DNA of 64,000 nucleotides from contig OX597821.1 in assembly GCA_951406725.2 (NCBI GenBank), forward strand, positions 82,026,001-82,090,000, in the 5' to 3' direction. How positions within the stretch are numbered: the first letter of the stretch is position 1; each line of letters opens with the position of its first letter. Shown piece after piece: positions 8,020-59,700 of the stretch. This DNA comes from Octopus vulgaris (taxonomy: Eukaryota). The translations under genes and the position numbers were made by a program. Below the pieces are notes generated by a model that saw only the letters and a program-made list of their open reading frames with translations, was not told the origin of the DNA and did no database searches.

Positions 8020-8192
8020 TTTTTTAATTTTTCTCTCCTTGTTTCTTTTCTGTGTATCTTTCTGCTGAAGAGCGTAGGCTCGAAACGTAAAAGACTTGTT
8101 TTATTTATATTCTTGAGCGCCATACTAATACAATTGTTTGTTTGTATTCCACCTGCCTTCGTCTTTTGTTTATTTTCATAAAGCTTCCCGTT
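8020..8192 (+). mobile_element. Short Penelope-pLTR-like element with minimal hammerhead motif at 8057-8094
   Basis: TCTTT-CTGCTGA-A-GAGC(GTAG)GCTC-GAAAC-GTA-AAAGA; flanked by (TA)n on both sides; related copies at about 20.2k, 20.8k, 26.4k and 59.0k. Confidence 0.6.
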
Positions 8193-54915: not shown

Positions 54916-55839
54916 TCAATTGTCATCATCATTTAACGTTCATTGTCTATGCTGGCATGGGTTGGACAGTTTGAGTGGGTTGGCATGTTGGAAGGCTGCA
55001 CCAGGCTCCAGTCTGATTTGGCATAGTTTTCTATAGCTGGATGCCCTTCTTAATGCCAACCACTCCGAGAGTGTAATGGGTATTTTTACATACCACCAGC
55101 ACAGGTACCATTTGCATGACACCAGGGTGTGTTTACATGCCAATTTTAATGATATAGTCTGTTATTGATAATACATTGTAACACGCAGTTCCACATGCAA
55201 GGACTCTAGATAATCACTGTTATAAAAAACGCCACTTGCATGAATGTCAGTAACATGTCTGTAACAGTCCTGTCTGATAAATTTTGATAGACCTAGCTAA
55301 TTGATTGGTTGACTGACCAAATGATTAATCAAACAAATGATGAGTTAATTGGTTAGTAGTAGTAGAGGTAATAATAAAAGAAATGAAATAGAACCAGTGC
55401 ATGTATGTTTATTATTGGCACAATGACCCTCCCAACATACAGCAAAATTTGTTTCCCAGCACAAGTTCATATCAAGAATCTTGCAAACTAAAGTACAAAA
55501 AACAAAATATTTTAGAATGTAATGAAAAATTAGAGATAAAACACTAACGAGCAATAAAAAAAAAATACTTAAGATAAATAAATATTTTTCTATAAAATGT
55601 TTTCATTGCCCAAATTTGCTTCAGTATAAATAAATATGTTATTTATGTTTAACTCTAGGTGTTGGCCATTTTAATGTTGTTGGTAGCGCACCAGTGTCGT
55701 TAGTATAAAACCAAACTGAAACCAATTGCAAACCTTAACCCAAACACCCAACCAAATTCTAAAAGCGCTTGGGGGTGGCTCTCCCTGACATTTTACTGAA
55801 GTGGATTGTCGGGTGAGGAGAAAGTGAAGAGTGAATCAG

Positions 55840-56067
55840 TAGTAGTGGTGGTGGTGATGGTGATGGTGTGGTGGTGGTGGTGGTGGTAGCAGTGGTAGCA
55901 ATGGAGGTAGTAGAGGCAGCAGTAGTGGTGGTGGTGGTGATGTGGTGTGGTAGTGCTGGTGGTGCTGGTGGTGCTGGTGGTGTTAGTGGTAGTGGTAATG
56001 GTGATGGCGACAGTGATAGTGTAGGTAGTAGTGGTAACAGCAGTAGTAGCGGTAGCAGCAGCAGCAC

Positions 56068-56127
<60 letters not shown>

Positions 56128-57380
56128 CTGTTGTTGTTGTTGGCAGTGGTGATAGCGGAGGGGGGGTGATGATGATAGTGGTGATGGTGATGATAGCTGC
56201 CGTAGTTGTTGTGGTAGTGATGGTTGTGGTGGTGGTGGTGGTGTCAGTAGAAACCCAAACAGCAGAGTACTTGGCACTGATGGTACTGCAGAACATAATT
56301 GAGGAATGATTTAGTCTGGAGCAGAAAAACTGTACATATCAGCCATGACTGATCTTGGTAGTCGTGGTGATGGTGATGGTGATGGGGGGTGATGGTGATG
56401 GGGGGGGTGATGGTGATGGGGGGGGGGTCGTGGTTAGAGCAGTGATGGTGATATTGAACTTCGTTGGTGGCAGGGATGGTTTTGGTAGAAACGTCTGGTC
56501 TTGTTGGTGGTCTTGGAAGTGGTGGTGGTGGCGATGGTGGTGGTGGTGGTGGATTTGGTGGTGGCGGTGGTGATTATAGCACTGATGAGGATATTGAGAG
56601 CTTTGCGTGGTTGATGGGGGGGGGGGGGGTGGAGTAAGCTTGGTGGTAGTGAGGGCTTTAGTAAGAGGTGGTAGTGGAGCTATTTGGTCTTGTTGTTGTT
56701 GTTGTTGTTATTGTTGCTGGTGGTGGTGGTGGTGGGGACAGTAGTGATGGTCCTTATAAAGATGATAGTTAAGATGTTTGGGCTTGTTGCTGTTGTTGTT
56801 GGTGGTGATGGTGATGGTGCAGTGGTGGTAGTGATGGTGGTGGTGGTGGAGGTGATGGTCTTGGGAAAGGTGGTAGTGGTAGTGGTGGTGGTCTTGGCAG
56901 GTATAGCAGTAGTGGGATATTAAGCTTGATGATAATGTTAGACTTAATAAAGTTGTTGTTGTTGTTGTTATTTGTGGTGGTGCTACTGTTTGTGGTGGTA
57001 GTGGTGGTGATGGTGGTGGTGGTGGTAGTCTTAGTAGTCATAGTAACGGTAGCAATACTGATCTGGATGGTAATGTTGGTCTTAGTAAAGGTGGTAGTGG
57101 AGATGGTGGTGGTGGTGATGGTAGTGGCGGTACCAATAATGATAGTGTTAGGTCTTGGTCACGAAGGTGGTGGGGGAGGAGATGTTGATTTTTGGGTGGT
57201 GGGAGGTAGTGAAACTGGTAGAAGAATATGGTGGTGGGGGTCATGGTGGAATGGATGTTAGTGCAGTGATCATGGTAGTAGTGGTGTTGATGTTCGCAGA
57301 GATGGCAGTGGTGGTGGTGGTGATGGTGGTGGTAGTAATTGTGGTGATGGCGAGGATGAAGATGGTGGTGGTGAGATGAT
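55840..57380. repeat. Long degenerate (GGT/GAT/TAG/GTT)n low-complexity tract
   Basis: Direct inspection. Confidence 0.85.
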
Positions 57381-58025
57381 AGAGGCTAATAAAAACAAAC
57401 ACAAGAGACATACTTGGCACAGATAGGAAGTAAATGTGCATTTAAGTATATCAGGTTTGTAAGATAAGACGTGTGGGCTATATACTATTAAGGTAGAAAT
57501 ATATACACAATCACACTCACATACACACACACACACACATGCATATATACGCATGCACATGCATGTGCATGCATAAAAACACACAAACACACACACACAC
57601 ACACACACAGAGGTTTGCTCATGTATGCAAACGTAAACATACTCATGTATGCATGCTGAAGCAAATATGCAAATTGATGGGTAATTTGCACTTGTAAATA
57701 TGAAATGCATGTTTTACAAAACATATATATATATATTTATATATCATCCTCCTCCTCCTCCTCCTCCTCATCATCATCATCATCATCACCGTCATCGTCA
57801 TTTAACATCCGTTGTCCATGCTGGCATGGGTTGGACGGTTTGACCAGGGCTGGTAAGCTGAGGGGCTGCACCGGACTCCAGTCTGATTTGGTAGGGTTTT
57901 CTACAGCTGGATGCCCTTCCTAACACCAACCACTTTACAGAGTGTAATGGGTGCTTTTACGTGCCACCGGCATGGGTGCTAGCTGTGTGATACCAGGATC
58001 TGCCATGACTAATATATATGTGTGT

Positions 58026-58540: not shown

Positions 58541-58600
<60 letters not shown>

Positions 58601-58671
58601 TATGTGCATGAGTCGTCTAAGAGACCATAAGTCAGAGAAAAGATGCACTTGTATATCTATCAGTAGAGTGG

Positions 58672-58982
58672 GTATATTATCCAAAATGTATAATATTATA
58701 TATCCATCATGACTTATTTTACCAATTGGTTTCATGTAAAGAATATAATGAAGTGTTAGGTAACAATCTGATTATATGACTTTATGCTCATCAGAGTTAG
58801 CTGATATGGAAGGGAATATGGTGACTGTAGTCGCCAAATTCTCTTCCATATTGGCTAACTCTGATGTGCATAAAGTTATATAATCCAATTGTTACCTAAC
58901 ACTTCATTATATTCCTTATGCGAAACCAGTTGGTAAGATCAGCTGTGACAGATATTTAATACTATACTTTTCAGATAATATA
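58672..58982. mobile_element. Fold-back of about 310 nt made of two head-to-head hammerhead-bearing units
   Basis: Arms are complementary around GACT-GT-AGTC (58823-58832). Right arm CTGATGT-GCATAAAG...CCTTATGC-GAAAC-CAGTTG-GTA; left arm (minus) CTGATGA-GCATAAAG...CTTTACAT-GAAAC-CAATTG-GTA. Confidence 0.8.
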
Positions 58983-58999
58983 TATACATACATATATAT

Positions 59000-59180
59000 A
59001 GGGAGAATTCACAAAAAAACAAAAGACGAAGACAGGTGGTGTAGACAACAAACAGATGTATTAGTATAACGCTTGGGAAGTGAAAAAGTCTTTAACATTT
59101 CGAGCCTATGCTCTTCCACAGAAACGAAGACAGAAAAAAAACAAGGAGAGAAAATAAAGAATGTGTAGTGGCTACCAGTC
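59000..59180 (-). mobile_element. pLTR-like element (8020 family)
   Basis: Minus strand TTT-CTGTGGA-A-GAGC(ATAG)GCTC-GAAAT-GTT-AAA, followed by the family tail. Confidence 0.6.
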
Positions 59181-59443
59181 TATATTTAGTTAAAGATAGT
59201 TATACCCAATTTCATGTCCATAAAGTACTTAGCTTTACAACGTCTCGTCAGACCCTAATGGACAGAGACCTGTAGTCTCTCTTGAAAGTAAAAAGAGAAA
59301 AGACCTCATTGCAAGTTGATGAACACAGAGACAAAGGAGAAGGGTTAAGACTGGCCATGACTATCTTTATCTAAATACTCTATTCTTCTATAACTTAGAC
59401 TGTGCTTCTCTTTCATATTTATGATTTACTGACGATATATGTA

Positions 59444-59489: not shown

Positions 59490-59700
59490 ATCCAAACATG
59501 AAAACACAAAGAGAAAACACAACAACGCGAGGACGTGGAACAAGTATAGTATTATTGGACGCTCAGGAAAGGAGGAAAGAAGGAGAGTTTAATGTTTCGA
59601 GCGGAGCTCTTTGTCAGAAACATAGGAAAAGGAAAGATCCATAGAAGGGAAGATGGAGGAAAAAAACATCACCAACGGTACACACGCAGTCACATTTTGA
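59485..59700 (-). mobile_element. Related pLTR-like element with minimal hammerhead at 59587-59621
   Basis: Minus strand GTTT-CTGACAA-A-GAGC(TCC)GCTC-GAAAC-ATT-AAAC; (TA)n on both sides. Confidence 0.6.

Follow-up and report, generated by a model that had tools for sequence, protein, structure and literature searches.

The occurrence of inverted arms and optional tails in Penelope-like elements (PLEs) has already been published (PMC3846280; Craig et al., 2021, PMC8557442), and the account of Pen2a_Av favours antisense self-priming (PMC3846280). Penelope-13_HM is listed with an inverted 5′-truncated copy and a hammerhead on each strand (PMC8557442), and opposite-strand hammerhead pairs lying 100–700 bp apart are recorded for Schistosoma (Cervera & de la Pena, 2014, PMC4209133). 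A Penelope-like protein has been described in vitro as extending both strands, with start sites at either limit of the tail (Frangieh et al., 2024, PMC11167929); for the PAc element of that report no RNA-seq reads ended at the hammerhead cut, and cleavage is described only with protein. Two questions are left open in PMC8557442 and PMC11167929: whether the weak hammerheads of PLEs are active in cells, and by what route the inverted arm and the one-sided tail originate. In work on LINE-1, RtcB is reported to join U6 snRNA bearing a cyclic phosphate to RNA with a 5′-OH (Moldovan et al., 2019, PMC6789731). We have followed up a fold-back from the genome of Octopus vulgaris, and in our judgement it is likely that this hairpin is one old Hydra-clade Penelope-like insertion, composed of two 5′-truncated hammerhead-bearing 3′ ends set head to head. 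Reverse transcription of a single sense RNA is likely to have begun from both cut target ends, with priming at two fixed sites separated by about 65 nt. The hairpin locus itself is ordinary, a dead insertion of known type with a known head-to-head layout; the part of the result that was not found in the literature searched is the presence of doubled U6 junctions in its relatives.

The fold-back, at 58673–58982, is the longest inverted repeat within the 55–64 kb portion of the window (the whole 64,000-nt stretch of DNA that was analysed). The preliminary description had given arms of about 150 nt with almost no spacer, and indeed the arms (58673–58826 and 58829–58982) are each 154 nt long, lie 2 nt apart and are 83% complementary, with 26 mismatches in 154 positions. 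Its predicted fold of −184 kcal/mol (z = −22) was equalled by none of 100 shuffles. On the evidence of the inverted repeat, genome matches and family alignment, the left arm (58673–58826, minus strand) is a 5′-truncated 3′ end, or pLTR, of the element, and the right arm (58829–58982, plus strand) is a second such pLTR that terminates at a tail-less 3′ site. The left arm runs past the repeat to about 58609 and thereby carries, at 58609–58672 on the minus strand, a 64-nt tail that is a 3′ extension of the element and is absent from the right arm; in alignment to the family the left arm matches up to position 2039 of 2041 and the right arm ends at 1975. At the head-to-head centre (58827–58828; locus L001 of our series) the left arm starts at family position 1821 and the right arm at 1822 with a gap of 1, a near-symmetric junction with at most 1 nt unassigned. 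The left target side is a (GT)n microsatellite (58546–58608) and the right a TA-rich flank (58983–59000). A 9-nt stretch at 58601–58609 agrees with 58979–58989 at 7 positions, either as a decayed target-site duplication or by microsatellite chance. The locus 58609–58982 is itself without an ORF, and no host gene was identified among the 17 long ORFs of the window.

Several other features lie in the same window. Two more Penelope-type relics (59001–59190 and 59500–59630, both minus strand) are found in TA tracts beside the hairpin and carry minimal hammerhead-like motifs with cores at 59121 and 59617; the relic at 59001–59190 is far commoner in sequencing contigs than the hairpin's family. Hammerhead-like motifs are also found at 8062 (plus), 16702 (plus) and about 59240–59330 (minus), the last, spotted by eye, having core words of uncertain order, and the cores at 8062 and 59121 deviate from CUGA at the fourth base. 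Positions 55800–57400 are taken up by an extended, degenerate trinucleotide repeat, (GGT/GTA)n, whose GC skew is strong.

Each arm of the hairpin contains a decayed type I hammerhead, and the lesions given in the preliminary description were confirmed in both. In the right arm (58845–58952, plus strand; core words and fold prediction) the helix II base is paired and the core word is CUGAUGU (58861–58867) with an A9U lesion at 58867, followed by GAAA at 58922–58925 and a GUA ending at 58935, so that the predicted cut falls between 58935 and 58936; in addition to the A9U change, other pairs are broken. In the left arm (58700–58810, minus strand) the core is kept, with CUGAUGA at 58794–58788, GAAA at 58733–58730 and a predicted cut after 58720, and the helix II base is broken, together with one inner helix I pair. 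When a type I hammerhead is taken to comprise CUGANGA, GAAA, NUH and three helices, the A9U change and the broken helix II base leave both arms outside the definition, and the family majority (71 arms) falls within it, having a complete core and a GUA site, with 8 bp at the base of helix II and 3 bp in helix III. The doubt originally entertained, that the family consensus might lack the hammerhead core, can thus be set aside. An Rfam scan of the window gave no hammerhead match at the locus among the 150 of 251 matches listed.

The canonical motif that had been reconstructed by combining the arms stands as regards its core, its self-complementary helix III strand and its GUA triplet, but the 38 nt that separate the 8-bp strands of helix II, originally taken for a loop, are predicted in the family majority to form a further interrupted stem, with 13 of 14 pairs at probability 0.77–1.0. 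A covariation test of this long-helix structure in 25 copies gave no excess over shuffles (210/500), a test that is uninformative for copies decaying from one source. The helix III strand is predicted to form a 10-bp dimer (−12.4 kcal/mol); pairing of the 3-bp helix III within a monomer is also predicted, with a probability of 0.72–0.78.

The two arms had been said to bear complementary lesions, as if this were meaningful. Over 121 nt, the left arm differs from the family majority at 14 positions and the right at 15; 11 of these 29 differences fall at CpG sites, as do all three changes that break the left helix II base, and of 70 copies chosen by sequence 3′ of the cut, only 14 retain the full core. 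Since the divergence of the arms is so nearly equal, the helix II damage of the left arm is of CpG type and intact cores are so few, the apparent complementarity is an outcome of decay, and the lesions are likely to be ordinary neutral changes. Moreover, neither arm could make good the defect of the other, since each strand has only one of the ribozymes in sense and no transcript holds both in that orientation. Core positions were less variable than the rest (27/700 against 383/5415), a count limited to copies anchored 3′ of the cut, an earlier count having been dropped because many of its loci were anchored on the core itself; we take this lower variability to reflect selection acting on the source elements, although an influence of base context is possible too.

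It had also been proposed that a ribozyme placed beside its own antisense would be silenced, and structure prediction agrees, every hammerhead pair having a probability of 0.0 inside the fold-back on both strands; both ribozymes at the locus are therefore predicted to be dead and sequestered. A stronger form of this idea is that the locus acts as RNA, either as a deliberately silenced ribozyme or as a long duplex for ADAR or Dicer. Extensive A-to-I editing is a feature of cephalopods, the predicted folds of the two strands are stable (−191 and −177 kcal/mol, with unbroken stacks of 27–32 bp and no hammerhead pair populated), and by geometry the antisense arm is transcribed first on either strand. 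We nevertheless regard an RNA role as very unlikely, as the arms are 12% apart at non-CpG sites, near the 11% of other arm pairs, the layout is common to a quarter to a half of the family, and no A-to-G change common to both arms marks the template. Two sets of contigs, presumed to be RNA, contain family-like pieces, none of which extends over the unique flanks or the centre, and so indicate neither expression nor silence; A-to-G differences in these contigs were considered as editing and rejected, the same differences being present in DNA runs and hence differences within the family. In one DNA run, which may be the source of the assembly, contigs match 58680–58776 exactly and 58799–58945 with one difference, the second reaching only 28 nt left of the centre.

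A first look at the animal's own 2.8-Gb genome gave 1315 and 1440 candidate matches for the two arms, the best at 90–91%, and a core 15-mer has 315 exact matches. Longer copies have upstream sequence in common for about 1 kb, and the majority of 12 copies is open there for about 420 aa, encoding in one frame the thumb-side half of a reverse transcriptase (RT) and a GIY-YIG-type endonuclease, with the CxCx5C linker, CxxC and CxH by which the Hydra clade is defined (PMC8557442), and conserved E and N residues flanked by CxxC and CxH; no CCHH motif was found in this majority. The N-terminal part of the RT is present in locus L095, and the hammerhead lies about 580 nt after the stop codon. Counted by eye, about 136 of 182 residues are identical to Hydra-1_Obim. 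As Pfam named none of five ORF fragments of the hairpin's family, assignment to the Hydra clade of PLEs is based on these motifs and this likeness, by which it is shown. The hairpin's family is a separate one, its hammerhead having no match in the supplement of PMC8557442 (two motifs, 0 matches).

This linkage to an ORF also settles what the hairpin is not. A DNA MITE with terminal inverted repeats would be short, palindromic and of high copy number, as is the hairpin, and an ordinary MITE with a target-site duplication (TSD) was the finding that the preliminary description had named as contrary to its own proposal. The ends of the insertions are asymmetric, however, their 5′ truncation falls at varying points, roughly half of them have a single arm and no TSD of fixed length was seen; TSDs were not above shuffles (13/51 against a shuffled mean of 7.4 and maximum of 14), and the RT/endonuclease ORF of the longer copies refutes a MITE, to which we attach next to no probability. 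The flanks of the one-tailed insertions described below adjoin TA repeats at 45 of 102 ends, CA/TG at 25 and other sequence at 32. A non-LTR retrozyme was likewise considered and rejected, given the link to the ORF and the lack of direct hammerhead tandems in 88 insertions searched within 1.5–2.5 kb, a search that retrieved no full-length copy.

The frequency of inverted arms was determined in two position-ordered samples, which replace an earlier palindrome rate of 23/52 obtained from best-scoring matches and possibly biased. Sample A consisted of 88 insertions in genome order, from the first 100 of the 315 core matches, and had an upstream inverted arm in 45 (24 with both cores) and none in 43. 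Sample B was drawn from the first 100 of 158 matches and consisted of 96 insertions with their anchor 3′ of the cut; 41 were two-armed, 10 had another inverted piece and 45 were single, giving an inverted arm in 51 of 96. These samples still over-sample two-armed loci, and the true share with two full hammerheads may, as a rough estimate, be nearer one in five. To the question posed at the outset, whether the family occurs as monomers or always as palindromes, the answer is therefore that it is neither always palindromic nor MITE-like, with an inverted arm in about half of the sampled insertions.

Such recurrence bears on whether the hairpin could stem from two independent insertions, or from a later inverted duplication of one copy at the DNA level. 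The best genome matches of each arm (90–91%) do exceed the 83% between the arms, but higher matches elsewhere are expected after separate decay from one template. Furthermore, the arms of the locus have two derived non-CpG states in common, there is no duplication of the flanks, the fixed tail of the family distinguishes the two 3′ ends, and 45 of 88 insertions show the same layout, so that the probability of either event is in our view minimal. Across 33 arm pairs, the two arms had on average 1.15 derived non-CpG states in common, whereas arms from different loci had 0.32, and none of 20000 resamplings reached the observed value. What had been called an inverted pLTR duplication is thus indeed the inverted pLTR of a Penelope-like element, but the ‘duplication’ is better read as formed during insertion.

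We found 84 distinct tight head-to-head junctions, of which 58 have both 3′ ends intact. Exactly one tail is present in 51 of these 58 two-armed insertions, none in 6 and two in 1 (29 expected to have one, p ~1e-9), so that 7 break the one-tail rule, and the tail can sit on either arm. In 25 of the 51 one-tailed insertions the longer arm is the untailed one and in 15 it is the tailed one; in the other 11 the arms agree to within 5 nt. Inserted bases occur at 41 of 84 centres, and an overlap of at least 3 nt at 21 of the 43 centres without them (control 4.6%), a microhomology that BLAST-defined ends inflate. The 5′ ends of copies cluster just upstream of the ribozyme, with 31 of 96 in a 40-nt window against 2–7 per 20 nt on either side, and we infer that the 5′ end of the RNA lies there; this common 5′ end would explain why both arms of the locus are about 150 nt long.

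A further indication of how such insertions arise came from U6 snRNA. In L239, a two-armed sister insertion of the hairpin's family, each arm begins immediately after GUA and abuts the 3′ terminus of U6 (identified by Rfam at 54 bits, against a gathering threshold of 44). It is the only U6 junction found for this family and one of only 2 of the 96 copies of sample B that start within 2 nt of the cut, where copies without U6 do not pile up. Two further candidates for cut-site starts, L111 and L259, were rejected, being explained by a deletion and a microhomology. The genome contains 362 exact U6 3′ ends; flanks were examined for 196 of 244 rows of the listed class, and most proved to be SINE starts. 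Among the dispersed U6 copies, including those at L266–L317, fusion to the 5′ end of a member of one of a few SINE-like families predominates, the join showing T-runs of varying length and additional bases. Two variants of the U6 5′ end occur in the genome, seven gene-like U6 copies stand in tandem about 1.1 kb apart (L284–L290, G000:C1:139.42 Mb), and in L299 and L311 a U6 3′ end is joined straight to the 5′ end of another U6, as U6–U6 tandem chimeras.

A uniform test was applied to 98 U6 ends from 85 loci (50 unselected and 35 picked by eye) with nine hammerhead parents. Of these ends 23 could be assigned to a hammerhead family, all of them in sense, and 17 of the 23, representing 8 families and 11 insertions, fall precisely at the cut, the base that follows it standing right behind five T. 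The remaining six did not do so in this test, two of them looking exact by eye, three being placed on a related proxy parent and one (L352) possibly being a true off-site join. Cut sites were assigned after viewing the junction, except for L239 and L328; in L328, whose family has a Pfam GIY-YIG match and a CxxC linker upstream, the junction position was predicted beforehand and then confirmed. A prediction was also made for L322 and L308, two independent U6 copies joined at the same position of a low-copy repeat, but a genome search did not find the parent of their flank. The sister families with U6 joins include a young C3-G8 family (2 insertions), a U3-A8 family (1405 exact-pattern matches, 5 insertions), a family whose core is apparently A3-U8 and in which a base near G12 is unusual, being either extra or changed (231 matches), and four more hammerhead families. 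The U3-A8 and apparent A3-U8 families, which are of high copy number and have swapped 3–8 core pairs, were seen at L338–L343, L364–L367 and L369–L381, and U3-A8 occurs in the L328 family as well. Exactly five T stand at the join in 21 of 28 hammerhead-type arms against 6 of 35 SINE-type joins, a control in which one duplicated locus is represented by six copies and three entries are not SINEs; at GUU sites the T-run overlaps the parent, making such joins less diagnostic than those at GUA and GUC. All 13 two-armed U6 insertions have one tail, and single-armed ones number 3.

A U6 ligation chimera may be recognized as the mature 3′ U-run of U6 joined directly and in sense to a partner end that would bear a 5′-OH, and this arrangement is found in the sister insertions, not at the hairpin locus. 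Hammerhead cleavage leaves a 5′-OH. Ligation and a template jump from the cut end onto U6 alike need a cut end, and on either account the RNA was cut at that site; the uniform five-T join, as read from the genome, fits ligation better. Given that so rare a chimera is present on both arms, one RNA molecule underlies both. As far as genomic junctions can tell, these ribozymes are thus likely to cleave in living cells, and a single RNA is likely to be the source of both arms. Contigs placed on the young sister family showed no loose U6 end among the matches listed. The open-access literature searched yielded no paper on a U6–PLE junction; judged by listing, matches for U6, ribozyme and RtcB chimeras concern LINE-1 or Alu, and those for Penelope with inverted and twin priming are unrelated.

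The principal alternative for the origin of the palindrome invokes the same element but a single priming event, either the cDNA folding back on itself or an antisense transcript self-priming, the version argued in PMC3846280. Short complementary overlaps are frequent at the centres, and derived states and the doubled U6 junction are common to both arms, as they would be if one arm had been copied from the other. When a cDNA primed once at the tail site folds back, however, the tailed arm always ends up the longer, yet the untailed arm is longer in 25 of 51 insertions and bears the longer, near full-length U6 piece in 4 of the 13 two-armed U6 insertions too. The sense orientation of 23 of 23 assignable U6 joins means, on this evidence, that the template RNA was sense, against the antisense self-priming of PMC3846280, and the single-armed U6 insertions that might have been antisense sources are outnumbered by two-armed ones, 3 to 13. 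We therefore consider self-priming unlikely, and favour two primings at two fixed sites because one priming with fold-back cannot give a longer untailed arm beside a shorter tailed one; a fold-back coming after two-ended priming is possible. Arm lengths fit equally a shorter arm copied from RNA and one copied from the first cDNA.

Our current working model of two-ended priming is that the hammerhead of the source element would cut in vivo and that its 5′-OH product would sometimes be ligated to U6 in an RtcB-type reaction. Both target DNA ends would then prime reverse transcription on one sense RNA, at two fixed sites whose spacing of about 65 nt would leave a tail on one arm only. At the centre, annealing or end joining would unite the two nascent cDNAs, and the nearly equal lengths of the hairpin's arms, about 150 nt each, would represent run-off at the common RNA 5′ end. 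More generally, we think it on balance probable that the hammerheads of at least eight PLE families, including those with U3-A8 and apparently A3-U8 cores, cut in the germ line, that the 5′-OH product is ligated to U6 and that the enzyme of the element copies this single sense RNA from both target ends. If this is true, PLE ribozymes are active in vivo, and the inverted pLTR with its one-sided tail results from two-ended priming and not from antisense self-priming. The doubled U6 junctions bear on both of these questions at once; they also give base-precise cut sites for variant cores missed by descriptors, and can be counted in any animal genome.

The hairpin's family resembles the Hydra clade, as represented by Hydra-1_Obim and Penelope-13_HM (Craig et al., 2021, PMC8557442), in its C-terminal GIY-YIG-type domain, CxCx5C linker, CxxC and CxH, and in its 3′ hammerhead and TA targets. 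Protein identity to Hydra-1_Obim, counted by eye, is about 75% over 182 residues, but a different hammerhead is listed there; the hairpin's family has a 54-nt domain II, and its tail of 64 nt compares with 30–40 bp as described (PMC8557442). With other PLE hammerheads (Cervera & de la Pena, 2014, PMC4209133; PMC6765202) it has in common type I topology, a canonical core and a self-complementary helix III strand, and the U3-A8 core variant of PMC4209133 is also found in sister families here; it differs from the hammerheads of PMC4209133 in its long interrupted helix II, extended helix I, lack of an extra base before helix II and a helix III predicted to form as a monomer too. The head-to-head arms with a tail on one end are as in Pen2a_Av and endonuclease-bearing PLEs (PMC3846280; PMC8557442, Fig. 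2), but here the tails have been counted (51/58, on either arm) and tied by the doubled U6 junctions to one sense RNA. For the PAc Poseidon element, two start sites at the limits of the tail are likewise reported in vitro, together with cutting and extension of both strands (Frangieh et al., 2024, PMC11167929), but in contrast to the findings for PAc, the genomic U6 joins reported here point to cleavage in vivo. Finally, the U6/LINE-1 chimeric pseudogenes attributed to RtcB ligation (Moldovan et al., 2019, PMC6789731) likewise consist of the 3′ U-run of U6 and a retroelement RNA, retrotransposed together; in the LINE-1 case the partner end is ascribed to an unknown nuclease, whereas here it is fixed at the ribozyme cut, the carrier is a PLE and the junction usually occurs twice, head to head.
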